A stretch of DNA of 34,931 nt from a bacterium (GCA_040752695.1 JBFMGO010000057.1:1-34931); one strand, 5' to 3'. Shown: positions 1 through 34,931, counted from the stretch's first letter. Notes: generated by a model not told the origin, from the letters alone. A program made the numbers and translations.

Positions 1-405
1 CCGAGCGAATTTAAAAAGACCAAATACATGAGTCACAGCCACCTGGTGCTGAAGCCCTTTTATGGGAAAGATGCGGTCTGGAACCGCAGCATTCTGAATC
101 ATGAGGGATACTTTTTCCTCGGCGGGGGACTGGTCAGTTATGAATGCCAGCCGGACGGAAATACCGAGAATGTCCTCTCGGCCAGCTTTGGAATCGGCAC
201 CAGGTATTTTATCCATGAGCATTTATGCGTGAATCTCGAGGTTCGGGATCTTTTGAATTTCAAGGATGAAGGCATGGAGAATATTCTCGGCTTCGGTCTT
301 GGCCTGGGATTCCGGTTTAACCTGTCTGCGAGGAAAACTGCCGGAGGCGAAACCATCGAGAGCCTGCAGCACTACCTGAGGGGAGAGGACAGGGAAAAAC
401 CATGA
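1..405 (+). CDS. Outer-membrane beta-barrel protein, myxobacterial GltA/B/H (NfsA/B)-like; 5' partial
   Basis: The frame is open from base 1 (PSEFKKTKYMSHSHLVLKPFYGK...). It has alternating amphipathic strands (YFFLGGGLV, FGIGTRYF, LGFGLGLGFRF) and a 'P-F-YGK' motif recalled from Glt-type barrels. The stop overlaps the next ATG (ATGA 402-405). Confidence 0.7.
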   Translation, partial: PSEFKKTKYMSHSHLVLKPFYGKDAVWNRSILNHEGYFFLGGGLVSYECQPDGNTENVLSASFGIGTRYFIHEHLCVNLEVRDLLNFKDEGMENILGFGLGLGFRFNLSARKTAGGETIESLQHYLRGEDREKP

Positions 406-2036
406 AACGGTCGGCAAAACAAATGGCCACACAAGCGGTGAAAAAAACGGTGATTGGCTTTACTGCGATCGTATTCTTTTTGCTGGCCTGTGCAGGAGGG
501 AAAAGCCATGCAGTTCAGCAGGATTCGGACGGCCAGGTTCCCGTAAGTGACCAGACCTCCGTAAGTGACCATGCCCCCGGCAGTGACCAGGCTCCCGAAA
601 GCGGCCCTGCCCCTGCCAATGACCGGGTGACGGTGAAGGAGAGGGACGCCTTTGCCAGAGGATACCGGCTCTTTGAAAAAAAGGAGTATCAAAAGGCAGC
701 CCCGTATTTATACCGTTTCCTCAACAAGAATTCACCGGATGCGGATGATTATGAATGGGCGGAATTTTTCTTCGGGATCTGTTTAAATAAGTGCGGTCTG
801 TCTCATGGTGCGGTTGATACGCTCACGCACCTCGTGACCAGAAAACCGAATCCCAGGATCATTTCCTATTGCCTTGAACTCTTTGAGGAGATCACCCGCA
901 CTATTCCCTTCGATCGTGATTTGCTCATCAATACTGTTATCTGCGATCAGGAGTATGGCCTTTTGGAAAAAGATATGGCTGATTTCATCAACTATTATCA
1001 AGGGGTTTTTGATTGGGAACAGGGATTTTTCCAGTGGGGGAACGATCATTTTCAAAAGATCAGCCCAAAGAGCTATTATTTCTCCAAGTACCTCTTCCAA
1101 AAAGCACTCTTGCGGGTTTATCAGGACAGGATCGATGAGGCCGTAGCCATAAGCCGGGATATCCTGGAAAGCCCTGGCAGCGGGCGACCGGATGCCGGCC
1201 GTGCCGAAGCGGATGAGCTCAGCGGGCTCAAGGATGAAGTGGCTGTAACCCTGGCCCGGCTGCTCTATGAAAAGGGCAGGTTCGAGGAGGCTGAAGGCAT
1301 GTATCAGAAGATCCGGAAACCCCTTTTAGAGCAGGCTCAGAATCTTTTCGAGAGGGCATGGACCAACTATCGAATGGGAAACCTGGAAAAGGCCATGGGG
1401 CTTTTGTATGCTTTCGAGGCTCCCAGCTTTCAGGATTATTTTACCCCTGAATATTATATCCTCAAGTCTCTCATCTATAAAGATGTGTGTCATTATCAGC
1501 GTGCCCTGGCCGTAGTAAATGAATTTAAAACCCGATATGGCTGCTCCCTTCAATTAATCTATGGCCGGGGCACGGCTTCGGATGACACCGGACTCCTTTT
1601 ACTTCTTTTGAACAAAAAGAAGATCAATGAGAGCTGGGAGTTTTTAAAGCTTCTGGACCGGGAAAAAGAAAAGAGCAGGGGCTTTCTCGATAAGCCTCTT
1701 AAGGAGTACCTGGAGAGGGTGTATACCCTCGAGATCGAGAAAATAACCGGGGTTTTCAGAAAGCAGATCGAGGATGAATATGAAAAAATGGCCAATGAAC
1801 TGCTGAAGTTCGAAGAACAGGTCAATCTCATGGAATACGAGATCGGACTCGACATGTACCAGAGAGTCTATCAATACCACTACCGCAAGGAAAGCCAACT
1901 GGCCCAAAAACCCGCCCAAGGGGTAGCCGTCTATCCTTTCCAGGGTGAGTTTTGGAATGATGAACTGGATGATTATACGGTAACTTTGCCTGATAAATGC
2001 AACTGTATCGAAGAGTGGGATATATTTTTCAAATGA
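402..2036 (+). CDS. Exported TPR protein, GltC/NfsC-like
   Basis: N-terminal signal/lipobox-like segment (FFLLAC), TPR helices (LARLLYEKGRFEEAEGMYQKI, LFERAWTNY), and a C-terminal 'YPFQGEFWNDELDDY...C' motif that I recall as typical of GltC-family proteins. Confidence 0.7.
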   Translation: MKRSAKQMATQAVKKTVIGFTAIVFFLLACAGGKSHAVQQDSDGQVPVSDQTSVSDHAPGSDQAPESGPAPANDRVTVKERDAFARGYRLFEKKEYQKAAPYLYRFLNKNSPDADDYEWAEFFFGICLNKCGLSHGAVDTLTHLVTRKPNPRIISYCLELFEEITRTIPFDRDLLINTVICDQEYGLLEKDMADFINYYQGVFDWEQGFFQWGNDHFQKISPKSYYFSKYLFQKALLRVYQDRIDEAVAISRDILESPGSGRPDAGRAEADELSGLKDEVAVTLARLLYEKGRFEEAEGMYQKIRKPLLEQAQNLFERAWTNYRMGNLEKAMGLLYAFEAPSFQDYFTPEYYILKSLIYKDVCHYQRALAVVNEFKTRYGCSLQLIYGRGTASDDTGLLLLLLNKKKINESWEFLKLLDREKEKSRGFLDKPLKEYLERVYTLEIEKITGVFRKQIEDEYEKMANELLKFEEQVNLMEYEIGLDMYQRVYQYHYRKESQLAQKPAQGVAVYPFQGEFWNDELDDYTVTLPDKCNCIEEWDIFFK

Positions 2037-5000
2037 TAAAAAAACTGCTTACTTCGAAAACTATCTTTATCCCTGTTTCCGTTTCCATCTTTATCCTGGC
2101 CTTCGTCTTTATGCCCCTGGTCTTGTTCTTCCTTTCCCCTGGTTTTTGCAGCCAGGCTGAAAGCCCCGGAGGTCATGGGTCTTCCATGGACCGGGGTAAT
2201 GGGGGAAGCGATGAAAGCAATGAATACGGAAAAAGCTATCAGCACGAAAAGAAGGCCGGGGAGGATCAGGCCAGGGAAAGACAACAGGTGATCTCCAAGC
2301 TCAGAGAGGATAAACAAAAGTGCGATCTGGCTATTGAAAATACCAAGCTCCTGATCGACCGGTCGAAGAACAAGCCCTACCTTCCGGAGATGTACCTGCG
2401 CCTGGCCGAGTTGTATATCGAAAAGTCCCGGCTGGTGTATTTCCTCCGCAAGGCCGAGTCCAGCGGCACTTCGGTCAAGTCCCTGGAGCAGCTCGAATCG
2501 AATGCCCTGAAGAATCAGGCTATCGAGCTTTACCTGCGCATCCTTACCAACTTTCCCGATTTCAAGGACCTTGATAAGGTGCACTTTTATCTGGCTCACG
2601 AATACCGGGAGCTTGGCCAGATCGATGCCATGATCACCCAGTACCGGGCCATTATCAGCGCCTTCAAGGATAGCCCGTATGCTGCGGAAAGCTATTTGCT
2701 TTTAGGGGATTATTTTTTCAATGCTCAGGATCTCGATATGGCCCAGAGGCATTACGAGGCGGTCTTGAATTATCCGCAAAGCTCAGGGCTGGCCATTGCC
2801 CGTTATAAGCTGGCCTGGTGTTACATTAACAGGGCGAATTTCCAGGAAGCCATCAAGCTCTTCGAGGAATCCGTCACCAGCCTCACCGATGCCGGGGAGC
2901 TTGATATCGACACCTACAAGAGGGTGGATGTCAGGATCGAGGCCCTGACCGATATGGCCTATTGCTACGGCGAGTGTTACAAAGAGAGTACGCCTTCCGA
3001 AGCCATAGCCTATTTTGAAAAGTATGCCTGGGCACGGCCTGTTTACACCCTGGCTCTTGAAAAACTGGCTAATCGCTACCTGATCAAGAACAAGTGGTCT
3101 CATGCCGCCGCCATCTACCGCAAGCTGTCAACCTTACGGCACGATACCGAAAAGCTGCTCGAATACAGCCGCAGGATCTTCGAATGCGTCCGGTCCATGG
3201 AGCATTTCGAGGATGCGGACCAGGATGTAGGGATCATGATTGCAGCGCTCAGGAAACAGAAGTACTCCGTCCATATCCCTGAGGAAGAGAAAAAGAAAAA
3301 CCTGGCCGATTTCGAGCTCTACGCAAGAGACATGATTACTCGCCTCCACCAAAAGGCCAGGGAGAAAAAATCGAAAGAGGATTTCATCCGGGCTGCTGAT
3401 TCGTATAAGGCCTATCTCGAATTTTTCGACTCAAGCCCAACCTACAGGGAGATGGAGGCAAACTATGCCGAGGCGCTTTTCGCGGCCCAACGGTATCTCG
3501 ATGCCGGAAAGCAGTACGAGAAGCGTGCCAGGGCCATTCCCCAAAAGAACAGGCAGAGAGAAGAGAGCCTCTACAGCGCGGTGCTCTCTTACTACAGCGC
3601 ACTCAAGCAGAGTAAGGACAGCCTCACTCCTTACCAGATCGCCTCAGCCAGAGGAGGGCTCAAAACGTGCGGCAAGGCGTATACCGATGATTTCCCGGCT
3701 TCTCCGCGGGTTTCCAATGTGCTCTTTAACGTGGCCTGGATCACCTACGACGAGGGAAAATATGATGAAGCCATAGCCGAATTTTCCCGGTTTGTCGACC
3801 GCTACCCGGGGGGTGAGGAGGCCAGAGCTGCGGTCCATCTCATTCTCGATGCCTATAACCTGAAGGAAGATTATGCCGGCTTGATGAAGTATGGGCAAAA
3901 GATCCTCAGGAGCCGGAAGATTCAGGACGCGGAATTTACGAATGAGATCCAGAAAATCGTGCAGGCTGCGGAAGCGAAGATCATCAGCTCGTTCACGGTT
4001 GCTGCCCTCAACGACTGGGACAAGAAAAGCGATTTTTCTTCCGGCGGCGGGGAAGGTTCGGCTGGCAGGGATGCCTCTTTGGGAGAATATGCTCTCTATG
4101 CCCTCCTTGCTCCGAGCAGGGAGAAAAAAGACCTTGGGACCCTCTTTACCTCCGGATCGCAGTTGATCGAACACTACCCGGGCTCGCCGAAGGTCGAAGA
4201 AGCCTTGAGTCTCATGGTCGATTCCTCACTGCGGATCGGTCAGTTCAGGCTCCTTGCCCAGTACCTCGAAGAGTATGCCAGTCGCTTTCCCCAAAAGAGC
4301 GGCAGCCTCGATTTTCTCTATCAGGCAGCCCGCATCAGAGAGGGGCTTGGTCAGTATGACCTCGCGAACAAGGACTACCAGGACTATCAGGGGCTTCTCG
4401 ATCGCGATGCAGGCCGGACAAATGACGCCCGGACCGGGAGCGGCCAAACCAGAGCGCAAATCCTGCTGGCTATGGCGGATAATGCCGGGCACAAAGGCGA
4501 TAATCCTGCTGCACTCAGGCTGCTGCAATCTTCCAGGGATCTTCTTCCGCCCCAGGATCAAATCGAAGTCGATGCCCGCATAGCCGATCTCTATGCAAAG
4601 GAGGGTGATTTTGACAAGGCCGTCGTCTTTGCCGCAAGAGCCAAAAAGGCATACAACCCCAAGTCTGCCAAGGCGGGCGGGGACCTTTCGGGGAATCTTC
4701 CGAGTGTCATGGCCGGGATGGAATATGACCTCCTGGAGCAGGACTTTAAAAAGTATATGGGGATTCAACTGAAAGGGAGCATCGATAACAAGCTCGTAGC
4801 AGCCAAGGCAAAGAGCCTTGAGGCACTGGAAAAGGGCTATCTTGCCGTTATTCAGTACCAGTCTCCTGAACGGGCTTTAGCTGCCTGCTATCGCTCGTAT
4901 GAAACCTACCGGGAGTTTGCCCGCTTTCTCAAAGAGTCTCCCCTTCCCGAATTAACACCTGAGGAGAAAGAGCAGTATCTTCAGCTTATTGATCAGCAGG

Positions 5001-5632
5001 CGCAAGGATACACCAAAAAGGCGGAGCAATACCGCAGCGCCTGTGTCGAAAAGGCCCATAGCTGGCTGGTGTGCGATCCTCACCTGGCACGATATTTCCT
5101 CGACTCTTCCACCCGGCCGGAAGGTTCAGGCTTTTCAAGGCCGGCATCCATGGCTGAAATAACCTCCCAATGCTTCAAGGATGAGGCATTGAGGGAGCTG
5201 CATCAAAAGCTCATGGAAAATCCGGACTCCCTTTCCACCATCCTGACTCTTTGCGAAACCTACCGGGAAAAGGGTGATGTGAGGCTTTCGATCCTCATAG
5301 CCCGGCAGGCACTCGATAAGGCAGGTTCTGTGGGTGATGGCAAGGGTCAGTCTCGATCATTGAAGGCCCGGAATTATAACGCCCTTGGCGTCTCCTATCT
5401 CACGATTGGTGAAGATCGACTGGCTAAGGATGCCTTTACTGCGGCCCTGGCCATCGATGCTCAAAATATCGCGGCAAGGGTCAATCTTGCCGCTCTCTAT
5501 CAGTACTACGGCCATATAGACCAGGCCAGGAGCATATATCAATCGCTTCCTGACCAGGGAAAGATCGAAGAAACAAAAGATGCGATCCATCCTAAAGCGC
5601 GGGAGTTCTACCATGCATACCTTCGAGGATAA
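2033..5632 (+). CDS. Large periplasmic TPR protein (1199 aa), GltD/AgmU/NfsD-like
   Basis: The ATG at 2033 overlaps the upstream stop (ATGA) and is preferred over the track start at 1997. Hydrophobic N-terminus followed by many TPRs (YLRLAELYIEKSR, YLLLGDYFF, ARYKLAWCYIN). Size and position after a GltC-like gene fit GltD. Confidence 0.7.
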   Translation: MIKKLLTSKTIFIPVSVSIFILAFVFMPLVLFFLSPGFCSQAESPGGHGSSMDRGNGGSDESNEYGKSYQHEKKAGEDQARERQQVISKLREDKQKCDLAIENTKLLIDRSKNKPYLPEMYLRLAELYIEKSRLVYFLRKAESSGTSVKSLEQLESNALKNQAIELYLRILTNFPDFKDLDKVHFYLAHEYRELGQIDAMITQYRAIISAFKDSPYAAESYLLLGDYFFNAQDLDMAQRHYEAVLNYPQSSGLAIARYKLAWCYINRANFQEAIKLFEESVTSLTDAGELDIDTYKRVDVRIEALTDMAYCYGECYKESTPSEAIAYFEKYAWARPVYTLALEKLANRYLIKNKWSHAAAIYRKLSTLRHDTEKLLEYSRRIFECVRSMEHFEDADQDVGIMIAALRKQKYSVHIPEEEKKKNLADFELYARDMITRLHQKAREKKSKEDFIRAADSYKAYLEFFDSSPTYREMEANYAEALFAAQRYLDAGKQYEKRARAIPQKNRQREESLYSAVLSYYSALKQSKDSLTPYQIASARGGLKTCGKAYTDDFPASPRVSNVLFNVAWITYDEGKYDEAIAEFSRFVDRYPGGEEARAAVHLILDAYNLKEDYAGLMKYGQKILRSRKIQDAEFTNEIQKIVQAAEAKIISSFTVAALNDWDKKSDFSSGGGEGSAGRDASLGEYALYALLAPSREKKDLGTLFTSGSQLIEHYPGSPKVEEALSLMVDSSLRIGQFRLLAQYLEEYASRFPQKSGSLDFLYQAARIREGLGQYDLANKDYQDYQGLLDRDAGRTNDARTGSGQTRAQILLAMADNAGHKGDNPAALRLLQSSRDLLPPQDQIEVDARIADLYAKEGDFDKAVVFAARAKKAYNPKSAKAGGDLSGNLPSVMAGMEYDLLEQDFKKYMGIQLKGSIDNKLVAAKAKSLEALEKGYLAVIQYQSPERALAACYRSYETYREFARFLKESPLPELTPEEKEQYLQLIDQQAQGYTKKAEQYRSACVEKAHSWLVCDPHLARYFLDSSTRPEGSGFSRPASMAEITSQCFKDEALRELHQKLMENPDSLSTILTLCETYREKGDVRLSILIARQALDKAGSVGDGKGQSRSLKARNYNALGVSYLTIGEDRLAKDAFTAALAIDAQNIAARVNLAALYQYYGHIDQARSIYQSLPDQGKIEETKDAIHPKAREFYHAYLRG

Positions 5633-7046
5633 GGGAAAAGGGGATAAGAGAAAAAGGTGCCGTCGGCTGATTTTCCTCCTGGCTCTTCTCTTTTTGAGTA
5701 TCTCGGCTGCCGGAGGATGCGGTGGAGGAGGTGGCGGCGGCGGGCGGGAAGACAGCGGCCAGCCTGATGAACAACCCTACAATATTCTGCAAATCAAATG
5801 GGGGCAGACCGCTTTGGCCCGGATCGAGGCCGGAGGTATGCTCAGCCCCCGCATCGAAGCTGCTTTCGACGGCAGCGGGAAAGTTCATCTTGCCTATTTC
5901 CAGGATGGTTCCGATACTCCTTACAGGATTCGCTATATGACGGCAGACGGGCAAGCTCCGCGCTCCCTTTCTCCCTCCGAGCCGGCAACGGTCGCAGGCA
6001 TCGATAACTGCGCGGCCCTCAGCCTGGCGCTTGGTCAGGATAACCTGCCGGTAATTGCCTACCGGGGAGGGATGATCCGGGAATGCGGGAGGGAGCAGCA
6101 GTCGGATGCCATGATCAGCCTGAAAAGCGACACCTGGGCTGAATACACGGGTGCCATCGGCGTGGTCGAGCGAAACCCGGTCTTTCACGATGGCCTGGCA
6201 GGCACCGAAATATCGGCAGTGGTTGACTCGCAAGGGAATGTCCACCTTGCCTATCAGTTTTTTTACGAGGGGTGCGATGCCATGAACCAGCGCTACCCCG
6301 ATCTTTGCTATGTCAGGAAGGACCGTTCGGCACTCGATGGAGCGGTTCCTGAAGAAACCGTGGAGGGGAATCAGTATGACGGGGACAATATCCAGAACAG
6401 TGTGGGCTACCACTGTGCTCTCACCCTGGATGGGGAGGAAAACCCGGTCATTTTCTATTATGCCGAACTTCCCGATCACACACAGGGGCTTCGCGTGGCC
6501 CGCAAACGCAACGGAGTGTGGGAGAAGGAATGGATCGAGGAAGGCTGTGTTGTCGGCTCGATTGCCTGCGCCCGGTGCGATGCGGGAGGTTTCCTGGGAG
6601 TAGCCTATTACGTAGAGGAATACAGCGATGGTTATGGTGATGGATACAGCGGTGGTCAGGTCGATTCTCATTGCCTGCGCTATGCTCAGGAAATCGCTTC
6701 ATCTTGGGAAGGTGCTTCGTCTCAGGGAGAGGGCTCATTCTGGCGCGTCCAGATGGTGGATAACGCTTCCTTTTGCGGAGACTATTGCAGTCTTGCCTAT
6801 GATGCCGAAGGGTCTGCGGCCATTGCCTACTATGAGCTGAAAAGCCACAGCGGGTATGACCTGAACAATCTGAAGCTGGCACGCTTTCAGCAAGGCGTAT
6901 GGAAGAGCGAAGTCGTTGCCTCGGAAGGGGACATCGGACTTTACAATACCCTCTGGTTTGATGGCAGCCAAAGGCCAGTTATCTGCTCGTACTCCAGGAC
7001 TGAAGATACGATTTTTCTCTTTTCCCCCTATTACGAAGAAGAGTGA
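5613..7046 (+). CDS. Lipoprotein with probable beta-propeller repeats and poly-Gly linker
   Basis: Basic N-region, hydrophobic core and lipobox AGGC followed by 8 Gly. Repeated blade-like motifs (AFDGSGKVHLAY, VVDSQGNVHLAY, LTLDGEENPVIFY, LAYDAEGSAAIAY). Start at ATG 5613 is inferred from the signal peptide. Confidence 0.65.
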   Translation: MHTFEDKGKGDKRKRCRRLIFLLALLFLSISAAGGCGGGGGGGGREDSGQPDEQPYNILQIKWGQTALARIEAGGMLSPRIEAAFDGSGKVHLAYFQDGSDTPYRIRYMTADGQAPRSLSPSEPATVAGIDNCAALSLALGQDNLPVIAYRGGMIRECGREQQSDAMISLKSDTWAEYTGAIGVVERNPVFHDGLAGTEISAVVDSQGNVHLAYQFFYEGCDAMNQRYPDLCYVRKDRSALDGAVPEETVEGNQYDGDNIQNSVGYHCALTLDGEENPVIFYYAELPDHTQGLRVARKRNGVWEKEWIEEGCVVGSIACARCDAGGFLGVAYYVEEYSDGYGDGYSGGQVDSHCLRYAQEIASSWEGASSQGEGSFWRVQMVDNASFCGDYCSLAYDAEGSAAIAYYELKSHSGYDLNNLKLARFQQGVWKSEVVASEGDIGLYNTLWFDGSQRPVICSYSRTEDTIFLFSPYYEEE

Positions 7047-7057
7047 GGTGATGATGT

Positions 7058-7891
7058 ATGAAACGCTCTCTTTCTCCTGTAGTCTTGATACTTTTCCTCG
7101 CTGTCCTGACTCTGCTTGTCCGGGGCCTTCCTGTTCAGGCCCAGGACTTTAATCCGAACGACTGGTTTGACGAATGCCCCGATGACCTGTGCGGTGCACC
7201 TCCATCCGGCGGTGTGGGCGGGGGTGGCGGAGGCGGCGGGCCTATCGTGGTCAATTACGATTTAGGGCCGCATTTCTCCCTTCAGGAAGATTACGATGCC
7301 GATGGCATGGTGGATACAAGGGACAACTGTCCCTATACTCCCAATGACCAGGAGAACCGTGATGGCGATGATCATGGAGATGCCTGTGACAATTGCCCCT
7401 CTGTGGCGAATAATGATCAGCTCGATACTGACGGGGATGGAACCGGGGATGTCTGTGATCAGGATCTCGATGGCGACGGCATCTTGAATCAGAGCGACAA
7501 CTGCCGCTCCATCTCTAATCCTTATCAGGAGGATTACGACCATGACGGCACCGGCGATGTCTGCGATGAGGATGATGACAACGACGGTGTCCCGGACAGC
7601 ATCGATAATTGCAGCAAGGTGTATAATCCTGGCCAGGAAAACAGCGATTATTACCTGATTGGCGATACCAGCGGTGATGCCTGTGACGAGGATTGGGACA
7701 ATGATGGCTTCCCGGAAACGGACGGCCCTGACAAAGACCTGTGCCCCAATTGTCGTACCTATGAAAACAATGACTTTGACGGTGATGGCATAGGTGATGC
7801 CTGTGACAATTGCCCCAAAATACCGAATCCCGGTCAGGCGGACCAGGATCAGGACGGAAGAGGAGATGTGTGCGATGAAGGGCAAAAGTAA
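7058..7891 (+). CDS. Secreted thrombospondin type 3 (Ca-binding) repeat protein, MtsC-like
   Basis: Signal peptide ending VQA. The N-terminal [25 protein letters not shown] segment resembles myxobacterial MtsC from memory. Many DNCP...N.DQ.D.DGDG.GD.CD repeats follow. Confidence 0.8.
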
Positions 7892-9536
7892 AAACAAGGG
7901 CAGGTGTGCGATCTTCCTTCTCCTTCTTTTTGTTCTCCTGACCGTACTGGGCTCAGGGTGCGGGGAAGGACCGGATCTTGAGAGAACTCAGGCCAGGCAG
8001 AAGGTGAGCCTTGAGGGCACCTTCATTACCGAGAGCCCTGACGAGATTCGATTTCCGGTCAAGGTGCTCTTTGCCATCGACTGCTCCCTGAGCATGGGTG
8101 ATACGGTCAACGGGCAACTGGCAGGATCTGATCCGCACTTTTTACGGATCGAGGCTGTGCGGGAGTTTGTTGACACCTATAACAGCAATGAAAACACCTC
8201 CTTTGAAATCATGCTCTGGAACAACGATGTCTTCGAGCGGACAAGGACCGTTGACGGCAAGGGGGGATTTACCAAAGATCCTGACGAGATCGACAGGGTT
8301 CTAAACCGTGTCGCCAACGATACCATGACCGATTACCTGGGCACCCTGGACGCCATGTATGGCGATATTGAACGGGATATCAACCGCGTAAAATCCGAAG
8401 AAGAGCAGAATCTCATTCGCACCAAGTACATCGTCGTCTTTTTGAGTGACGGCATGTCCAATGTGCAGGGAGGAAGGCAGTCGGACAGGGATATCTGGGA
8501 CCGGGTCGATGAGATGAATCAGATGGCGACCCAGGCAGGTGTGGGGTCTTTCAATTTTCACACCTTCCTCCTGCTCGGCAATTTTCCGCCGACCGAAAGT
8601 GGACAACAGGCCCAGCAGCTTGCCGAAGCTACTCTTCAGGGTATGGCGGACCGGGGATCGGGACAGTTCCGGCCCTTTGAAAATGCGGAGGCTATCGATT
8701 TTATCAACATCGTCGATATGCGCCTGACCGTCGAATATAAAATAAAATACCTGGTGGCGGTTAATTACAATGTCAGACCGGGACTTGAGCTCGTATACGT
8801 AGACAGTGACTGCGACGGACTGAACGATGAAGAGGAAACCGAATACGGCACCGATCCCAATTGCCGCGATACGGACAAAGACGGCCTCAGCGATTTTTTC
8901 GAGATCAAGGCAAGTTCGCCGGGTCATGAACTGAATCCCCTGGTAGCGGACAGCCCCTGCGACAGCATGCCTGATGGCATCTGGCCGGATTCTGACCGGG
9001 ATGGTTTGACGGATTGCGAAGAATTCGTCAAGGGAACCAACCGGCATATCGCCGATACTGACAAAGACGGCATCCCCGATGGCATTGAATTTTCCATGGG
9101 TACCAATCCCCTGCCCCAGGAGGGCCAGACCACCACGGATTGCGATTTTGATGGCGTAGAGGATTACCAGGAGGTCCAAAGGCATACCAATGTCACCTCG
9201 AACGATCCCAGGATAAGGGAAAAATACAGCTATCACTATGATATCAAGGACCAGGGACTGGTGCCCATTTCGCAGGGGTCATCCATGCAATCCTACGTTC
9301 GGCAGTACCATTTCCTGATTTCCAATATCGATATCATGGATACGAAAGGGCGCATCGGAGAGAATGGAGAATACTGGCGGCCGGGAGATAATCTCATCCG
9401 CTTCTATATTGCCGAGGTGCCGGAAGATAATCCATCCAGCACCCCCATTTTTCGGATGGCTGAGGTGGTCGTGAACAGTAATGACAAAAATAGACAGATC
9501 GTCCTCACCCCGCAAGATTTTATCCTGATTCAGTAA
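7875..9536 (+). CDS. vWA (MIDAS) domain lipoprotein with C-terminal Ca-binding DxDxDG repeats, MtsB/MtsD/CglB-like adhesin
   Basis: Lipobox [20 protein letters not shown] carries DxSxS, with further MIDAS candidates in MTDY and FLSDG. Repeats DSDCDGL, DTDKDGL, DSDRDGL, DTDKDGI. ATG at 7875 overlaps the upstream gene. Confidence 0.8.
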
Positions 9537-9559
9537 AGCAGTAAGAAGGGGGCTTCACC

Positions 9560-12136
9560 ATGATAATCACGAAAAATCAAACCTCGATCTATCGCACCAG
9601 GAGACATCGAGCCGCAAGACGCCGGGCCATGAGACATTGCGACCGGAAGCATCGCACTGTGAACATCGTGGTTCGATCCTTTTTTATTCTTTTTATCCTT
9701 TTCGCGCTGATATGGTTTGCCGCATGCAGTCAGACTCCATCCGGACAGGAGGACGGCCCTGTGGAGCTTTCCCTGCGCCAGAGAGTTTCCGGCACCATCT
9801 CCCGGCCTGGAGAGGTTGACTGGTATCACATAAGGGCAGTTGAAGCCAACAGTATCCTGAAGGTAAATTGCTCCTCCAACACCTATCGCTCCGATGAAGA
9901 GCTTCTGGTAACCGTTTACCAGATGAACGGCGATGGGTCCTGGGTAAGGCTCCTAGCTGAGCACGCGCCGGAGGGGAGCGAGGTACCGCCGGATATTACC
10001 ATGAATATTTCCATCGATACACCGAAAAATATCTATATCTCGGTACGGGATCTTATGGATGATGAATCCTCGAATAATCCCTATTACCTTACCATCGATT
10101 ATGCCCAAGGTCCTGAGGGGAATGAAAATTTCAGTCAGGCCACTCCCCTGGCAGTCGATGACCCGCAGAGTTGTCAGATCGATTGCATCGGTTCTATCGG
10201 TGATATCGACTGCTACCGGTTTACCGCAACAGAGGATGGCGTGTACGCCATACGTGTCGATTTTTCTCCATTTTCCGACGGAACTCCTGTGGAGCTCTCC
10301 CTCGATCTTTACGACAGCCAGGGGAACCTGACAGAATCCTTAAGGCATGGCCAGGGAAACGCCTATCACCTTCTCGCCTGTCTTGGTGCAGGGGATTACT
10401 ATGTGCTTATCAAAGATTATGGGATGGATGATTTCGATTCTGCCTCGACCTATCAAATCTGCCTGGAAACAGGTGCTGCCGATGAGCAGGGAGTCAATGA
10501 CACAAGACCGGGTGCCTCTCCCATGGAGTACGACAATGCGAGTCTCACCTTTTCGGCACATGGCTCCATTGACTATATGGAGGATCAGGACTGGTACGGA
10601 TTTTCCCTCAAGGACATTCCTGCCAAAGGGTGTAAGGTGCTCGCCATAAGCTTTGACGATGAAGGGCAGGGATTGCCTTTCACCTACCAGCTTGCCCTGG
10701 AAGTTGCATCAGGGGATGAAGGAGGGAATGATGCAGGGGATGGGGATGGCGCACAAGATGGAGTTTCAGGGGCTTCAGGAGGCAGGGTTTTGCTTTCCCA
10801 CACCTATCGAGGGGGATCGTCCCCCTATCGAAATGAGATCAAGGCAGGGGAGGAGGATTATTACCTCGTAATCCAGGCTGCACAAGACCAGATTATCACG
10901 CAAGGGGCCCCCTACCGGGTCTATCTGACAGTTCTGGACGTTGCCGATCCAGCCGAAGATGCGGTAAAAAGTATCGATCCCAATACCGGCACTCCTGCTG
11001 CCGTGGGGAACGATACCATCGATACGGCGGATCTTCTCGTCTCGGACAGCCCTGTCACGGCCATGATCGGGTACCGGGGAGATGAGGACTGGTACCGCAT
11101 CGAGGTTGAAGATACGGACAGCCCGAAGGTGCTCGAGGTGTTTTTGGATACCAACTCCCAGCCCTCATCCGTGAATTACTCCCTGAGTGTCATGCGGGAT
11201 GAGGTTGTCGGCAGGGCAGTTGACAGAAGCGGTGAAAACGGCCCGTGTGAATTAAAGATGGGGCTTTTAATCCCCGAGTCTGGATCTGTCCCCATCACGC
11301 CTGCCTCGTATTTTTTCAGGGTCTGCGATTACCAGGCAGATAATGGTGACGGCCTTACGCCGTACCGCATCCAGGCCAATATCAGAGAGATTCCAAAAAC
11401 CCTGCCCGCGGACCCTGCCATCGATCAAAACAGAGTCATCTACTACAGCGAAACCCGGGAGATCGGGGACAATACCACAACTTCCATCAAACTTGAGTAT
11501 ACATCCCTGATCAAGACAGAGTATAAGGTCAATACCGCTCTTTTTGACTTCCATGATCAAAACCGGGTGAGCGACAGCACCCAGGCAGCCGGCGATCCGA
11601 ATCTGACGGCAGGAATGAGCGCCGATATTATCATGGAAAAAGATGGTGACCAGACGACGATTTCCTTTCCCTGGATTGCGGGATATATCGATTATCAGGG
11701 AGACCAGGACTGGTTCGAGATTGACCTTGGACCTCTTGCCGATGCAAACCAGCCTGCTGACAGCAGTTGGTACTATGATATCAGTATCGATATGCATGCA
11801 GGTGCCCCTGGCTCCAGTGTGGAATATATCTGGAAATTATACCGCGACCGGAACCAGAACGGGATCATGGTTGACCGTCCGAGAGACTCCGATGGCTTCA
11901 TGGCCAGTGCAGGTGATCTCGGTACCGAGATACAACCCTTTGATGTCACCACACCGGCAGAGGGCACGGATCAGAAATTCTGGGTCGGGGATGCCTGGAA
12001 GGGGAAATTCTATCTGAGCATCAGTGATTTTAATTACGTTAACTCCGCACATCCGGACGACGACTGGGGATATACCGGCGCTCCTTATTACGTCCGGGTA
12101 ACCCTGAAGTACCATAAAGGGCAGTCTTATCCTTAA
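9560..12136 (+). CDS. Large lipoprotein with about 5 PPC-like beta-sandwich repeats (possibly MtsF-like)
   Basis: Lipobox WFAAC. Repeated motif I...G/E-D/E-.-D-W/C-Y/F (ISRPGEVDWY, IGSIGDIDCY, IDYMEDQDWY, IGYRGDEDWY, IDYQGDQDWF). Very acidic. The exact start is uncertain. Confidence 0.65.
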   Translation: MIITKNQTSIYRTRRHRAARRRAMRHCDRKHRTVNIVVRSFFILFILFALIWFAACSQTPSGQEDGPVELSLRQRVSGTISRPGEVDWYHIRAVEANSILKVNCSSNTYRSDEELLVTVYQMNGDGSWVRLLAEHAPEGSEVPPDITMNISIDTPKNIYISVRDLMDDESSNNPYYLTIDYAQGPEGNENFSQATPLAVDDPQSCQIDCIGSIGDIDCYRFTATEDGVYAIRVDFSPFSDGTPVELSLDLYDSQGNLTESLRHGQGNAYHLLACLGAGDYYVLIKDYGMDDFDSASTYQICLETGAADEQGVNDTRPGASPMEYDNASLTFSAHGSIDYMEDQDWYGFSLKDIPAKGCKVLAISFDDEGQGLPFTYQLALEVASGDEGGNDAGDGDGAQDGVSGASGGRVLLSHTYRGGSSPYRNEIKAGEEDYYLVIQAAQDQIITQGAPYRVYLTVLDVADPAEDAVKSIDPNTGTPAAVGNDTIDTADLLVSDSPVTAMIGYRGDEDWYRIEVEDTDSPKVLEVFLDTNSQPSSVNYSLSVMRDEVVGRAVDRSGENGPCELKMGLLIPESGSVPITPASYFFRVCDYQADNGDGLTPYRIQANIREIPKTLPADPAIDQNRVIYYSETREIGDNTTTSIKLEYTSLIKTEYKVNTALFDFHDQNRVSDSTQAAGDPNLTAGMSADIIMEKDGDQTTISFPWIAGYIDYQGDQDWFEIDLGPLADANQPADSSWYYDISIDMHAGAPGSSVEYIWKLYRDRNQNGIMVDRPRDSDGFMASAGDLGTEIQPFDVTTPAEGTDQKFWVGDAWKGKFYLSISDFNYVNSAHPDDDWGYTGAPYYVRVTLKYHKGQSYP

Positions 12137-12244: not shown

Positions 12245-13216
12245 ATGGTGAACACATCCATCAGTTTAACCCGGTTAACAATCATGGTAAGGAATGTAAG
12301 CAAGGCTAAAAAAGGAGGCAATAGAGCCCGATTCGCTGGTGCAGCCGGTGAAACTTTCCTGCTCTTTGCAGCCATGATTTTTTTGACTGCTCAAGTTTGC
12401 TCAGCCGAGGTGAATCCCTATAGCTTTCCGGACGGTCCACGAGGCCTTCATTATAACCTCAATATTATAAGTAAAAAAGCAGGGTTTATCTGCCCTAAGC
12501 TGACCTATGAGGAAAACGGAAATTCCATCGGTGATAATGCTGTTTTTGTTCCGGATGATGGAATAGGCTTCAGGATCTCCATGCAGTATGAAAAGGGAGA
12601 GGGGGCAGAGGGAGAGAGGACAGCGGAAGTTACTGGTGGGCGTCGGGTTTCTTATCCATATGCGGGCATTGATGGAAATGACGTCCTTATTCAACTGCCC
12701 ATGAATGAAGCCGGATACCGGGTATATGCCAAGGCCTTGACGAAACCCGCAGATAACCCTGATGTCACGGTGATTCCTGCTCTGATGGCAGTCAAGGATG
12801 AAAGCGGAAATGACCTCGTATATCTTGGGCTGATCACCGAAAGCGGAGTTGAAACATCATACGAGTCCAGCTCAATTGTCTGTCAGAAAGACAAATCCAG
12901 GGCTGTTGACATTACCGCTCTCTTTCGCTGGAGCGGCACGGTATGCTATCTCTACGAACCGGAAGAATACCAGAACAAAAGAGATTTGTGCTGTGTTGAT
13001 CTGGACTTTGACGGTGTTTACGATGAATGGTATGATGCTGTGGAAGATCCGCTTACGAACCTGCCGCCCTGTTCCGAAGGTTACTCTTTCGTTACTGCAT
13101 ACTGCAAGGAATATGCAGACGAATGGGTATTTAATATTACCGATTTCGCTCCTTATCTATGGAGAACTGATAAAAACGGGATGAAATCGCTCCAGGTTCG
13201 ATTCTATCCGAATTAA
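12245..13216 (+). CDS. Secreted Cys-containing hypothetical protein
   Basis: RBS aaggag upstream, signal-like segment FLLFAAMIFLTAQVCSA, motif GLHYNLNIISKK, a Cys-rich C-terminal region with DLDFDG, and end LQVRFYPN. Confidence 0.7.
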   Translation: MVNTSISLTRLTIMVRNVSKAKKGGNRARFAGAAGETFLLFAAMIFLTAQVCSAEVNPYSFPDGPRGLHYNLNIISKKAGFICPKLTYEENGNSIGDNAVFVPDDGIGFRISMQYEKGEGAEGERTAEVTGGRRVSYPYAGIDGNDVLIQLPMNEAGYRVYAKALTKPADNPDVTVIPALMAVKDESGNDLVYLGLITESGVETSYESSSIVCQKDKSRAVDITALFRWSGTVCYLYEPEEYQNKRDLCCVDLDFDGVYDEWYDAVEDPLTNLPPCSEGYSFVTAYCKEYADEWVFNITDFAPYLWRTDKNGMKSLQVRFYPN

Positions 13217-13345
13217 GGGGAGGGGGGCGGCTTTCTGATTCCTCTTCTGGTGCCTGGTCGCTTATACCTGGACGCATTTTTTTGGTACAGGCATTCTTCA
13301 TTATACGGCCAGTTACCCCCCTCGGCCTTTGCCCTCCCCTCTTCC

Positions 13346-14698
13346 TTAATGCCTGAGTATCTTTCTCAGGACTCTTTTTCGCCTCATTCTCCTGCCCCTT
13401 TTCTTCCGTGGATCACCCGATGTGTAGCCCAATTTCTCCCAATTCAGCAACCTGCGGCCGGTCTTGCCGTGACAGTCCGTACAGGCAGGAACTTTATCAG
13501 TGGATACGATGGAGTGGCTCAGATTGAAAGTAATCTCTCTGGTTATTGCTGTTGCATCGGGATAGTCTGGTTCCGAATCCGCATCGCCGGGGTCATCATA
13601 GGCTCGCATGTCGGCCTCTGTAGTAACGAGCGGGGAAGAGGGATCTTGCGGATCAACAGGTTTGCCTGCGGCCTTGACCTTTTTGGCAATAATAATGTCA
13701 TCCAGTTCCGAGCCTTCCGATTTGATAAACCAGGTAACAGTGATTACGTTGAAAGGATATATCTTTGCTCCGGGAAAGTCTTTCCTTTCCGCATAGTCGA
13801 GAATTGGTACATATTTATGATCCGGCGATGGGCCGGCAGCATCATACCATTTGTACTGCGGCACCCATCCGGCCTCATGGTAGCAGGTGAGCGGCTTTCC
13901 GCCGATGAATTGTGTCCAGTCCCTCTTAAGCATGGCCTGGTCCGACCTGCTTCGGGTGTCGGTATGACAGGTTTCACAGGCAACCTTCTTACAGTGCTGG
14001 TCAAGCCTGTTTGCTTCGGCAATAATCTTTCCATCCTCGACCGCCCTTTGGTGGGGTGTGGATGGATGACAACCGCTCATGGTGCAACTGACCACGGGAT
14101 CGGTCATGGTTGGCTCACTGGTATCGAGCGCCTCACCTTTGGCTATCTGGTGGTTTTGGGCTGGATGGCAGTATTGGCAGCCACTTTGATAATGAACGGC
14201 AAGGTGAATATCACTGCCGGGATCAAAGAGGTCTCCCCTTTTTTCCGTTTCCTTTTCGTGGCACGTATAGCATTTCTGGATTGTCGGTGCCACGACTACA
14301 TAATCCAAGCTGCTGACCTGGTTAACCTCCGGGTGGCAACTCAGGCAGTTGACCTGTGGCTTATTCGGGTTCCACCTTGCTCCGATGTGACATTCGTCAC
14401 ACCCCCGGCTGATCCAGCCGTCAATGCCTCCCTCTTCACTGAATTTGAAATAAGACAGGGGGCACCATTTATCAACCATACCAAGCCCTGTACCATAGCC
14501 AATCTGCCCGTGGTATGACTGCTCGACCTCTTCATAGAGATCGAAATCTTGCATAAAAATATTTTCAATACCTTGAGCCCTGATACTCTCAGAGCCCTGA
14601 GCCCTGACATTTTCGATGCCCAGGCAGGCAATCATGCTGATGAGCAAAAATATGCCTGCGTATAATCCGATAGATACTCTTTTCCTTGGAGTAATCAT
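13346..14698 (-). CDS. Periplasmic multiheme cytochrome c (7 heme motifs), OTR/MmcA-like
   Basis: Signal/TM helix. Motifs CDECH, CLSCH, CYTCH, CQYCH, CTMSGCH (CX4CH), CETCH, CTDCH. The segments HQIAKG, H.KKVACETCH, PQYKWYD and AKIYPF resemble the octaheme tetrathionate reductase/MmcA family. Confidence 0.85.
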   Translation of the reverse strand: MITPRKRVSIGLYAGIFLLISMIACLGIENVRAQGSESIRAQGIENIFMQDFDLYEEVEQSYHGQIGYGTGLGMVDKWCPLSYFKFSEEGGIDGWISRGCDECHIGARWNPNKPQVNCLSCHPEVNQVSSLDYVVVAPTIQKCYTCHEKETEKRGDLFDPGSDIHLAVHYQSGCQYCHPAQNHQIAKGEALDTSEPTMTDPVVSCTMSGCHPSTPHQRAVEDGKIIAEANRLDQHCKKVACETCHTDTRSRSDQAMLKRDWTQFIGGKPLTCYHEAGWVPQYKWYDAAGPSPDHKYVPILDYAERKDFPGAKIYPFNVITVTWFIKSEGSELDDIIIAKKVKAAGKPVDPQDPSSPLVTTEADMRAYDDPGDADSEPDYPDATAITREITFNLSHSIVSTDKVPACTDCHGKTGRRLLNWEKLGYTSGDPRKKRGRRMRRKRVLRKILRH

Positions 14699-22175: not shown

Positions 22176-23258
22176 TTAGAAAGAGACTGTTACCCTGAAA
22201 AGCCACCCCTTGCGCTGCAGCCTGACTTCGTCGAGCTGAGATTCACCTTTTTCACCGGAGTAATAGTAGGTGGTATCTGAGCCATTTTCAGCAGACAGGA
22301 AAAGGTATTGCCAGCCCAGCTCAAGACCGACTGGCGGAAAGGGGCAATAAGTGACCGAGAATTCGGCACCTAATCCATATCCATAGGCCTTGTGGCGGAA
22401 GCTTGGGTCTTGAGCAAACTCTTCCTTGAGGTTCCATATTCCTTCACCAAGGTAATGAGCCACCAAGGGCGTAATTTTCCCTCCGATCGCCAGAGAATAG
22501 CAAAAGGGAAAAGAGTCTGGGATGACATCCCAGGTTGATTTCACACCGATTTTGATGGCATCCCAGATAAAGGTGTAGTGAGAATCGAGCCATGCAAAAG
22601 ACTCATCCTGATCGGATGACTGCAATTCCTCCCGGAAACTTTCTTCCCCGCTGTCTCCTGATCCGCTTCTTGCTCTGTTGTCTTCCCCGCCTCCTGACCA
22701 CGACCGGGCGATGGGTTTTCCATCATACATGCGCAGGCTGTCCTGGTAATGCTGTACGCCCACAATCCAATGCCATTGCCAGGATAAAAGCGGCTTTCCG
22801 GTCTTTTTCCTGAATAAAATCAATGGCTGGCGGGTCAGGGGCAAAAGTCCCTCCAGACTCCACAGATCAACCCTTCCGTCAACGGGATTCCGGGACTCTG
22901 AAGATTTGATGGAATTTTCAAAGTCAGTGTCCTGAGACCTCCCCTTGGTGATTGGGGCTACGCCGAAGAGAAAATTCAAACCAAACCGAGGGGCAGAGTG
23001 CACGATATCAATTTCAAGCGAAAAGATGCCGGCATCAAGGTCATGATAGTTCAGTTTGGAGATACAATTACCTGTTCCGCAGGGGAAGGATGTCTGCCAG
23101 GATGCCTCTGCACTGCTTTTCCAGTAACCAGTCCAGAGGCGGATTTCGCTGCCGCCTCGATCGGGGATGTTTTGTCCCATTCCCTGGCTGCAGCAGGTAA
23201 GTATAAAGATTCCAATCAGAAGGATGAGTACCCCTTCAAACGTTGAGAGGTTTTTCAT
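22176..23258 (-). CDS. Outer-membrane beta-barrel protein, omptin-like fold
   Basis: Signal peptide, amphipathic strands, a QDPSFRHKAYGYG segment and a C-terminal Phe (FRVTVSF, BAM signal). Confidence 0.65.
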   Translation of the reverse strand: MKNLSTFEGVLILLIGIFILTCCSQGMGQNIPDRGGSEIRLWTGYWKSSAEASWQTSFPCGTGNCISKLNYHDLDAGIFSLEIDIVHSAPRFGLNFLFGVAPITKGRSQDTDFENSIKSSESRNPVDGRVDLWSLEGLLPLTRQPLILFRKKTGKPLLSWQWHWIVGVQHYQDSLRMYDGKPIARSWSGGGEDNRARSGSGDSGEESFREELQSSDQDESFAWLDSHYTFIWDAIKIGVKSTWDVIPDSFPFCYSLAIGGKITPLVAHYLGEGIWNLKEEFAQDPSFRHKAYGYGLGAEFSVTYCPFPPVGLELGWQYLFLSAENGSDTTYYYSGEKGESQLDEVRLQRKGWLFRVTVSF

Positions 23259-34894: not shown

Positions 34895-34908
34895 GGGGAA
34901 TCTCTCCC

Positions 34909-34931
34909 TTAATCTTTCCAAAGGTTATTAG
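34909..34931 (-). CDS. prkA: C-terminal end of a PrkA/YeaG serine kinase (partial)
   Basis: The minus strand reads ...N-N-L-W-K-D-stop, a C-terminus I recall for PrkA-family proteins, in the expected prkA-yeaH-spoVR position. Only 23 nt are visible. Confidence 0.6.

Follow-up and report, generated by a model that had tools for sequence, protein, structure and literature searches.

A candidate Glt-type envelope complex encoded together with Mts-like adhesins in a bacterium outside the Myxococcota

We have analyzed a 34,931-nucleotide stretch of bacterial DNA (GCA_040752695.1 JBFMGO010000057.1:1-34931, hereafter the window), which is the entire contig C57 of genome G000, an assembly of 6.05 Mb in 239 contigs. 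Positions 1-12136 of the window contain seven open reading frames (ORFs) on the + strand, each of which overlaps the next or lies no more than 23 nt from it (Table 1). They belong to a unit that appears to combine an envelope module related to the Glt proteins of Myxococcus xanthus with adhesins related to the Mts proteins. Two of the junctions are ATGA overlaps, at 402-405 and 2033-2036, read directly from the sequence; at the other junctions the genes are separated by 11 and 23 nt or overlap by 26 to 52 nt. Seven tightly packed, co-oriented genes with two ATGA overlaps had been described in an earlier reading of this DNA (the original prediction), and both the ORF calls and direct reading bear this out. 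Pfam and NCBIfam matches, together with the leader sequences and their cysteine residues, likewise agree with the gene content that it proposed, i.e. an outer membrane barrel, two tetratricopeptide repeat (TPR) proteins, three lipoproteins and a thrombospondin type-3 (TSP3) protein.

The original prediction took these seven genes for a single operon. The packing supports that view as far as the window reaches, but the first gene is truncated and five further genes lie upstream on another contig, C90. The window thus contains the distal two thirds of a 12-gene unit of ~18 kb. The start of C90 carries, on its − strand, the five proximal genes and the first 94 amino acids (aa) of the same barrel; by comparison with G003, a genome of the same genus, ~18 barrel residues are absent between the two contigs. 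In G003 all twelve genes are uninterrupted on a 155-kb contig, where the barrel gene is preceded by an ExbB-like gene, two ExbD-like genes, a short gene and an 843-aa gene. The order of the unit is ExbB/TolQ, two different ExbD/TolR proteins, a GltF/CglF-like protein, a GltG-like protein, the barrel, a GltC-like protein, a large TPR protein, a β-propeller lipoprotein, and an adhesin trio comprising the TSP3 protein, a lipoprotein with a von Willebrand factor A (vWA) domain and TSP3 repeats (vWA-TSP3), and a PPC-repeat lipoprotein. Because scans of the window for promoter-like sites (15, compared with 11.0 ± 3.4 in shuffled sequences) and terminator-like sites (16, compared with 13.8 ± 3.5) gave no excess over shuffles, our use of the term operon is based on packing and conserved gene order. 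Two + strand ORFs that follow, 12245-13216 and 13250-14518, were considered as further members and dropped. Neither has a family match or a counterpart in G003, and the second also lies opposite a real cytochrome gene.

Table 1. Genes of the 12-gene unit that lie in the window, with the evidence for each assignment
Product	Position	Strand	Evidence and remarks
Outer-membrane β-barrel (OMP_myx_plus type), C-terminal 134 aa	1-405	+	TIGR04565; 5' open, cut by contig start
GltC-like periplasmic TPR protein, 544 aa	402-2036	+	NF033756
Large TPR protein, 1199 aa, candidate periplasmic shaft	2033-5632 (alternative start 1997)	+	TPR families; size, leader and position of GltD
β-Propeller lipoprotein, 488 aa, lipobox Cys47	5580-7046 (alternative start 5613)	+	AlphaFold2 (AF2) model and Foldseek
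Secreted TSP3 repeat protein, 277 aa, MtsC-like	7058-7891	+	PF02412, NF047638
vWA + five TSP3 repeats + C-terminal domain lipoprotein, 556 aa	7866-9536	+	NF047639, TSP3_bac, hhalign
Multi-domain β-sandwich (PPC/collagen-binding-domain-like) lipoprotein, 858 aa, Cys56	9560-12136	+	Profile, AF2, Foldseek, hhalign

The region upstream of base 1 had been pointed to as a place where glt and aglRQS genes might lie. What is found there on C90 is an ExbB and two ExbD motor proteins, followed by the GltF/CglF-like and GltG-like proteins. The channel protein is of ExbB/TolQ type (PF01618, 98.8 bits) with TolQ as its best match (75.7 bits), and the two adjacent ExbD/TolR proteins match PF02472 with 40.0 and 34.7 bits. 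This identifies the motor at the family level only. The next gene is a 169-aa ORF that belongs to a family in which the C-terminal 70 residues are conserved. The CglF model NF033764 is the best NCBIfam match in 10/10 homologues and the only match in 7/10, with E values of 4e-9 to 5e-3 and 16.8-36.5 bits, none of which reaches the cut-off of 90. CglF and GltF are the same protein (passage in PMC4488436). The position of the ORF immediately before the GltG-like gene is that found in the M. xanthus G1 cluster.

The GltG-like protein has 1003 aa, with an FHA domain (PF00498, 31.6 bits; cut-off 20.7), a membrane anchor, and a TonB-C-like AgmX/PglI C-terminal domain that passes its model (NF033768, 105.5 bits; cut-off 40). 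It matches the GltG equivalog with E = 8.8e-33 and 113.7 bits and misses the cut-off of 650, so that from its sequence it is best regarded as a homologue of GltG and not an orthologue. The barrel fragment in the window scores 52.6 bits with TIGR04565, while its full-length orthologue of 236 aa in G003 scores 86.1 bits and passes the cut-off of 60. It is the sole TIGR04565 match in the host genome and the single barrel of the unit, assigned at the level of this family. By gene content the operon contains no GltE, GltI, GltJ, GltK or AglZ; for GltI, GltK, AglZ and a separate GltJ, no model search of the genome was made. That for GltE is promiscuous, with matches in 12/14 control genomes, and the E = 0.03 that it reaches in C57 is uninformative.

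Two further regions of the host genome have related components. The start of contig C30 (1-1968, − strand) carries an ExbB 57% identical to that of the operon and then an FHA protein cut by the contig end, and on contig C40 (37452-42087, − strand) there are an ExbD, a 588-aa protein with an AgmX/PglI C-terminal domain (87.5 bits) and lipoproteins. The C30 start and the C40 end may be the two ends of one second Tol/Ton-like system.

The GltC-like protein matches the GltC model NF033756 with E = 4.6e-32 and 111.5 bits, missing the cut-off of 450. The next best place in the genome reaches E = 2.3e-5 and 24.4 bits, compared with 97-111 bits for this protein. A HMMER search of 1.84 billion representatives gave 1641 relatives at E ≤ 1e-3, 543 at E ≤ 1e-10 and 109 at E ≤ 1e-30, most of them ~470-540 aa long and matched nearly end to end. 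We sampled 20 representatives, consisting of the longer ones plus a spread. GltC is matched by 16 of these at E ≤ 1e-10 (one with a second, weaker family too), and the best of the 20 scores 249.8 bits, none exceeding the cut-off of 450. The GltC-like protein of the window is therefore assigned to a sister family of GltC and not to GltC proper. The N-terminal cysteine of the GltC-like protein is not conserved, and the same-genus orthologue has a plain signal peptide. The protein is 49-66% identical to proteins of the Desulfobacterota, and one of its homologues is attributed to Desulfatiferula olefinivorans. When genome contigs were searched with it, only two Bacteroidota loci were returned, both through a 30-residue TPR stretch. 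The Glt likeness put forward in the original prediction is therefore sustained by the margin of the GltC match over the next best in the genome, by the two models that are passed (TIGR04565 by the orthologue, and NF033768), and by the motor upstream.

The second TPR protein, of 1199 aa, matches TPR families and gives weak YbgF- and BamD-like matches; the TPR proteins of the unit as a whole match YbgF/CpoB and BamD weakly. M. xanthus GltD has 1191 aa, with TPRs and a signal peptide (Table 1 of PMC3169522), and the 1199-aa protein agrees with it in length, in its TPRs and leader, and in position. Over 370 aa it shares 36% identity with a TPR gene product encoded beside a GltC-like gene in L097, one of the mts-linked metagenome loci described below. 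Its neighbors in a protein atlas include clusters of ~1000-aa TPR proteins from Myxococcota and Bdellovibrionota, which we take as a lead only. A Bat (aerotolerance vWA/TPR) operon was also considered for this region and dropped; only BatC was matched, at E = 0.004-0.007, with no MoxR, DUF58 or membrane vWA genes.

The four remaining proteins of the unit all look like extracellular binding proteins, judging from their sequences and predicted folds. The propeller lipoprotein has no Pfam or NCBIfam family, with only a sub-threshold match to NF058595 (22.2 bits; cut-off 37). An AF2 prediction using an alignment of 28 sequences gave a β-propeller with pLDDT 81.6 and pTM 0.80, for which the best folds in the PDB are the Photorhabdus PLL/PHL lectins (E = 1e-11, TM 0.64-0.71 by target, 12-13% identity), followed by sialidases. 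The TSP3 protein scores 133.3 bits with PF02412. It matches the MtsC model NF047638 over positions 6-229 of 428 with 227.8 bits, missing the cut-off of 350. It has a signal peptide, but no C-terminal hydrophobic tail and no sorting tag.

The vWA-TSP3 protein comprises an N-terminal vWA domain that carries a MIDAS (metal-ion-dependent adhesion site, DxSxS), five DxDxDG repeats and a conserved C-terminal domain. Of the MIDAS residues, T155 and D195 do not vary in an alignment of 22 sequences, while D72, S74 and S76 are nearly invariant in it. The protein matches the MtsD model NF047639 with 134.4 bits, missing the cut-off of 800, and TSP3_bac with 47 bits; the match to the CglD model NF033765 (45.9 bits, missing the cut-off of 400) involves the TSP3 repeats only. 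Precomputed Pfam annotation assigns PF00092 to many of the relatives, and the copy in the window gives only VWA_2 at E = 0.13 in a relaxed Pfam search, in which the PPC-repeat protein gave PPC at E = 0.05 and the propeller protein BNR_4 at E = 0.024. The profile of the vWA-TSP3 family gave 0 matches at E ≤ 0.01 among the PDB sequences.

The last protein, of 858 aa, has no Pfam or NCBIfam family above cut-off. AF2 with 34 sequences predicts a string of β-sandwich domains (pLDDT 81.9, pTM 0.66). Its profile matches the Ca2+-dependent collagen-binding domains of the clostridial collagenase ColG (5iku, E = 3.2e-6), and Foldseek on the model returns CUB, neuropilin, reelin and the ColG collagen-binding domain with low global TM, as expected for a multi-domain chain. 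A hydrophobic leader with a cysteine is present in the products of the fourth, sixth and seventh genes of the window. The cysteine is invariant in the homologues of the 488-aa protein (C47, in 28 homologues) and of the 858-aa protein (C56), and nearly invariant in those of the 556-aa protein (C32). A likeness to CglB, which had also been proposed, is not found. The CglB model NF033757 has no match at E ≤ 0.1 anywhere in the genome, and none in 14 control genomes either, leaving its sensitivity unproven; CglD is the better comparison.

The likeness to the mts locus is closer. That locus was reportedly defined in a study by Zhang et al. in 2007. We scanned metagenomes with the vWA-TSP3 alignment, which returned 78 loci. 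Those that are bona fide mts loci by the NCBIfam cut-offs are distant, high-GC (0.61-0.72) metagenome contigs. The MtsC and MtsD scores, to be read against cut-offs of 350 and 800 respectively, are 571.7 and 851.9 bits for L106, 428.5 and 873.4 for L100, 541.1 and 684.9 for L097, and 447.8 and 220.2 for L095. The accessions that adjoin the MtsC and MtsD models are other families (NF047637 is lipo_CC0125 and NF047640 is AgmC_N) and were set aside. In L106 and L100 the gene order is a vWA/TSP3 paralogue, mtsC, mtsD, and a second vWA-TSP3 paralogue. In L106, the only one scanned there, this is followed by a ~776-aa gene without a family. On comparison by hhalign the vWA-TSP3 family aligns end to end with the second paralogue (L106:5693-7525; probability 100, E = 3.3e-42, 510 columns), the alignment spanning the lipobox, MIDAS, repeats and C-terminal domain. 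The 858-aa family aligns with the gene two after mtsD in L106 through PPC-type repeats (probability 96.9, E = 1.7e-10, 204 columns). Because of these alignments, and because the gene order is the same in L106 and L100, the TSP3, vWA-TSP3 and PPC genes can be regarded at the level of sequence as colinear homologues of part of the mts locus, without an MtsD orthologue and without the MYXO-CTERM tail. The Mts likeness of the original prediction thus holds in the form of sub-equivalog matches to MtsC and MtsD plus an end-to-end alignment with a gene of the mts locus.

Glt-type genes also occur near the mts genes themselves. A pair of GltF-like and GltG-like genes lies ~0.5-7 kb from the mts genes in L097, L100 and L106, where the nearer distances are rough since they derive from ORF and tblastn coordinates. 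Another such pair lies within ~7 kb of vWA-TSP3 genes in L109, a contig that was not scanned with the Mts models. In L097 there are also a barrel gene, a GltC-like gene and one for a TPR protein, the Glt genes being divergent from the mts genes. Our accounts of L095 differ: in one the GltF-like/GltG-like pair is present on all four MtsC loci, and in the other L095 has only an ExbB-like gene ~9 kb from the mts genes. The neighborhood of Glt and mts genes is therefore found on Myxococcota-type contigs as well, and is not peculiar to the host. L095 also encodes a sigma-54 activator (16-1284, + strand) with an FHA-like N-terminus by eye, ~7 kb upstream of mtsC, which is a possible regulator. In M. 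xanthus MtsC is MXAN_1334 (passage in PMC12475490), and the orphan G5 cluster has its gltD homologue in MXAN_1327 (passage in PMC3169522). Seven locus tags apart, the two genes would be close neighbors. Literature searches for MXAN_1326 and MXAN_1328-1337 gave only the passage that equates MtsC with MXAN_1334. Papers that cite the original study describe the mts locus as required for cell-cell cohesion, for S-motility and for development (passages in PMC11980579 and PMC12475490).

We examined the distribution of the two modules in the 20 genomes of the host phylum. The GltC-like protein is encoded in 5/20 genomes (G000, G003, G007, G012 and G013), and exactly these five also encode the 1199-aa TPR protein and the vWA-TSP3 protein. 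The 15 negative genomes include G002, one of the two other genomes of the genus, which is 96% complete and lacks all three components; for this reason we conclude that the cluster is accessory and was gained or lost recently. In G007 the order is kept as far as the contig reaches. In G012 genes 1-9 of the unit are together and the trio (genes 10-12) is on another large contig, and in G013 the cluster is fragmented over three short contigs.

In the metagenomes we counted neighbors at the 61 loci that are at least 40% identical to vWA-TSP3, using for each neighbor only those loci long enough to show it. The TSP3 gene lies upstream of the vWA gene at 41/42 informative loci and the PPC lipoprotein gene downstream of it at 34/35. 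The propeller lipoprotein is present at 24/34, the large TPR gene at 17/29, the GltC-like gene and the barrel at 11/20, and the GltG-like gene at 11/18. Conservation of the gene order among relatives is therefore seen in that G003, G007, G012 and the metagenome loci keep the order or the association. The arrangement can be permuted. In L081 (GC 0.64) the trio precedes the motor genes, after which come those for the GltF-like, GltG-like, barrel, GltC-like and TPR proteins. The propeller gene is with the Glt module in G012, and with the trio in L052 and L056. Since it travels sometimes with one module and sometimes with the other, the propeller lipoprotein is a plausible adaptor between them. 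One series of nine loci with GC of 0.35-0.40 (L041, L044-L048, L064, L065 and L092) has the trio only, with 6-10 kb of upstream sequence devoid of Glt genes. In these genomes either the trio stands alone, or the Glt module is elsewhere.

The host is not a myxobacterium, as was suspected from the base composition. The genome has GC of 0.481 and belongs to a phylum of 20 species in the GTDB set. LigA encoded in the window is 69-76% identical to proteins from metagenome-assembled genomes (MAGs) labeled 'bacterium', and no more than ~65% identical to anything else; the nearest named matches are to Anaerolineae, Chloroflexota and Bipolaricaulaceae at 60-63%. The vWA-TSP3 protein is 75% identical to a Desulfuromonas sp. 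protein, and 58-82% identical to the 119 relatives listed, which include proteins from Desulfobacterota MAGs. The named relatives among the matches listed are from Desulfobacterales, Desulfosarcinaceae, Desulfomonilia and Candidatus Magnetomorum (61% identity), the last a multicellular magnetotactic bacterium. GC in 2-kb segments of the window is 0.49-0.55, and somewhat raised, at 0.52-0.55, over 2-12 kb. The patchy phyletic pattern, the somewhat raised GC and the identity to Desulfobacterota proteins together give a hint that the cluster may have been exchanged horizontally with that phylum.

How might the products of these genes work together? In the Agl-Glt model set out in passages of PMC11761067, AglRQS energizes GltG and GltJ, which hold on to the GltD pillar through their TonB-C-like domains; GltF connects GltG with GltC, and GltC docks the barrels that hold CglB, a protein with a β-propeller and a vWA domain. 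CglD, a surface lipoprotein with TSP/COMP repeats and a vWA domain, stabilizes the Glt complex in a Ca2+-dependent manner (passage in bioRxiv 10.1101/2023.10.19.562135). Since the present operon encodes one counterpart for each layer of Agl-Glt together with adhesins in the same unit, we think it probable, at roughly 0.6, that it specifies a Glt-type complex, driven by protons, whose role is to expose, anchor or move Ca2+-dependent adhesins of the Mts-like kind in cohesion or attachment. By analogy with Agl-Glt, the motor powered by the proton-motive force would pull on the GltG-like protein, and the force would pass through a shaft formed by the GltD-like and GltC-like TPR proteins to the barrel and the propeller lipoprotein in the outer membrane. 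There the vWA and TSP3 adhesins would be exposed, anchored, moved or released, presumably displayed on the barrel as a platform. The outcome would be energized cell-cell or cell-surface adhesion, and not full gliding.

A number of observations weigh against such a motor-driven adhesin complex. At the protein level the Glt and Mts matches all fall below the NCBIfam equivalog cut-offs, with only NF033768 and TIGR04565 passed. The 1199-aa protein is likened to GltD by size and position, its homology to GltD being presumed. There is one barrel instead of three, and the complex would be far less elaborate than the machine used for gliding; GltE was not found in the cluster, with a model that is promiscuous, and no search was made for GltI, GltK, AglZ or a separate GltJ. 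An anchor is not visible in the TSP3 protein, and the lipoproteins would have to reach the surface by some route. The genetic linkage is not obligatory, given that the modules are on different contigs in G012 and that 12/29 loci have no TPR gene upstream of the trio, nine of those coming from the one low-GC sample series. Lastly, the 20 genomes of the phylum are related and so not independent, and 7/15 of the negatives are less than 90% complete.

We have weighed four other explanations against this reading: export of the adhesins, gliding proper, the handling of a polymer as by Nfs, and a Tol-like system with no connection to the adhesins. In the first, the complex is a motor-driven secretion or surface-export device, in which the Tol/Ton-like motor and a conduit of TPR proteins and barrel would do no more than carry the TSP3 and vWA proteins across or out of the outer membrane; these would then be free or matrix-bound adhesins with no mechanical coupling to it. 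The signal peptide of the TSP3 protein, with no anchor, is in keeping with this. Myxococcus MtsC has the MYXO-CTERM tag and other export routes (passages in PMC11980579 and PMC12475490), and therefore another export route would be needed outside the Myxococcota. Yet a single barrel of 236 aa is small for a protein conduit, and three of the four downstream proteins are lipoproteins with an invariant or near-invariant cysteine, which points to retention at the membrane. Moreover the trio persists without an adjoining Glt module at the 12 loci noted above. On balance we consider secretion unlikely.

A true gliding machine of the Agl-Glt kind, operating in a non-myxobacterial host, is improbable. 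The motor, GltF-like, GltG-like, barrel, GltC-like and GltD-like components are all present together with vWA and Ca2+-repeat adhesins, and in the M. xanthus model it is through its FHA domain that GltG binds GltI, a cytoplasmic scaffold (passage in PMC11761067). But Luciano et al. state that the core genes do not suffice for motility and that most of their carriers have no documented gliding (passages in PMC3169522), and the same source reports that the mutant in the M. xanthus G5 gltD homologue glides normally. The mts counterpart is tied to cohesion and S-motility, and not to gliding, in passages of PMC12475490 and PMC11980579. The host cluster also has no GltE by the promiscuous model, the unsearched components being those given above, and the genome gives no match to CglB.

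We give a similarly low weight to an Nfs-like machine that moves or compacts a polysaccharide or matrix, where the propeller and β-sandwich proteins would bind glycan and not cells. The idea draws on the resemblance of the propeller fold to fucose-binding lectins and sialidases, on that of the 858-aa protein to collagen- and ligand-binding β-sandwiches, and on the precedent of Nfs, a Glt paralogue that winds the spore-coat polysaccharide (PMC3858216; passage in PMC12288465). These fold matches are at 8-15% identity and are uninformative on ligands, and neither the window, nor G003, nor the loci inspected have genes for polysaccharide synthesis or export in or beside the operon. If the ligand of the adhesins were a glycan, the Nfs-like explanation would be compatible with a motor-driven adhesin complex.

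Least credible is an envelope-integrity system of the Tol-Pal kind with the adhesin genes as functionally unrelated neighbors: the motor does match TolQ best and the TPR proteins do resemble YbgF/CpoB and BamD weakly, but the cluster is not the housekeeping Tol-Pal system because the true TolB is on another contig (C143, 379.6 bits; cut-off 343), it is absent from 15/20 genomes of the phylum including the 96%-complete one of the same genus, both modules share one phyletic pattern, and their linkage recurs in rearranged form, with the trio before the motor in L081 and divergent in L097.

Returning to the motor-driven adhesin complex, its relationship to known systems can be set out component by component. 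As in Agl-Glt and Nfs, its channel is of the TolQ/ExbB type and is accompanied by two different ExbD/TolR proteins. The GltF-like and GltG-like genes precede the barrel in the order seen for gltF-gltG-gltH in the G1 cluster of M. xanthus (passage in PMC3169522). As in Agl-Glt there is a GltG-type protein with FHA domain, membrane anchor and AgmX/PglI domain, a GltC-like TPR protein beside the barrel, and a TPR protein of ~1200 aa like GltD, with vWA and Ca2+-repeat lipoprotein adhesins as the output (compare CglB and CglD). Unlike Agl-Glt the host unit has one barrel in place of GltA/B/H and a single operon in place of three clusters, and the adhesins are encoded inside it. It also misses every equivalog model (scoring 111 of 450 bits with GltC and 114 of 650 with GltG), and the host is not a myxobacterium.

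The closest published precedent is the 'core complex' of Luciano et al. in 2011, consisting of aglR, Q, S, gltC, D, E and G in Gamma- and Betaproteobacteria, Fibrobacter and Geobacter (passages in PMC3169522). Like the unit described here, this is a compact, single-locus Glt-type set outside the Myxococcales with signs of horizontal transfer. The host unit differs in that it has no GltE by gene content (the GltE model being promiscuous) and in having four surface-protein genes. It also has a barrel and a GltF-like protein, types reported only in Myxococcales and Bdellovibrionales in passages of that paper.

With the mts locus the unit shares a TSP3 protein that matches the N-terminal half of MtsC and a vWA-TSP3 protein that is a full-length homologue of the product of the gene after mtsD, in the same order. 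It differs from mts in lacking an MtsD orthologue proper and MYXO-CTERM, and in scoring 228 of 350 bits with MtsC and 134 of 800 with MtsD. Like CglD, the vWA-TSP3 protein would be a surface lipoprotein acting with Glt that has DxDxDG thrombospondin/COMP-type Ca2+ repeats and a vWA domain with MIDAS. Unlike CglD it has half the size and the reverse domain order, and reaches 45.9 of 400 bits. CglB has the β-propeller and vWA domain in one lipoprotein, whereas here the propeller and vWA lipoproteins are encoded by separate genes; the thought of a 'split CglB' is an analogy drawn from fold class only. The resemblance to Tol-Pal and TonB-ExbBD extends to the MotA/ExbB and ExbD family motor, the TonB-C-type C-terminus of the GltG-like protein and the weak YbgF/CpoB likeness of the TPR proteins. 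In contrast to those systems the operon contains no TolB, Pal or TonB-dependent receptor, and its distribution is accessory.

Taken at the level of sequence, the finding is a putative Glt-type machine that has a module of Mts-type adhesins built into it, in a phylum other than that of the myxobacteria. The original prediction had suggested that a system of this kind outside the Myxococcota might be undescribed. That is not so for the Glt part, because core complexes have been in print since 2011 (PMC3169522). In the literature outside subscription journals, figures and PDF supplements we found nothing linking mts with Glt paralogues or describing this type of operon. What the Glt core complex does outside myxobacteria, and what the G4 and G5 paralogues do in M. 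xanthus, was called unknown in passages of papers from 2011 and 2020 (PMC3169522; bioRxiv 10.1101/2020.07.22.216333). A conserved genetic link to Mts-type adhesins offers a concrete and testable answer for the core complex, and suggests which machine may serve the mts cohesion proteins in Myxococcus. The linkage in the host also suggests that an ancestral form of the Glt motor may serve adhesion. With relatives of the adhesins in the Desulfobacterota, including Candidatus Magnetomorum, the system could matter for aggregation in anaerobic consortia. More tentatively, and with rather less than even confidence, we can imagine that the Glt motor with Mts adhesins is an ancient, horizontally mobile 'motorized adhesin' system of several phyla, with an ancestral role in the proton-driven control of Ca2+-dependent adhesion. 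In M. xanthus the G5 cluster would then be the envelope platform of mts, and gliding and the winding of the spore coat would be later specializations.

The remainder of the window encodes a variety of other proteins. A multiheme c-type cytochrome gene lies at 13346-14698 (− strand), matching TIGR04314 with 103.6 bits, below its cut-off, and an octaheme tetrathionate-reductase family with 48.6 bits; the + strand ORF at 13250-14518, of 422 aa and without a family, is its shadow. A weak Pom-like porin is encoded at 22176-23258 (−), a chagasin-family peptidase inhibitor (I42, 77.7 bits) at 24840-25337 (+), and a 505-aa OmpA-domain protein at 26830-28347 (+). At 32274-34921 (−) a SpoVR gene (505 bits) lies beside DUF444/YeaH (409 bits) and is cut by the contig end; we take this pair to be the usual PrkA-YeaH-SpoVR stress module. 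The ligA gene is directly downstream of a PolX-type polymerase gene (Pol β-like palm and thumb plus PHP) at 16865-20682 (−), with a 4-nt overlap, and the two may constitute a repair pair.

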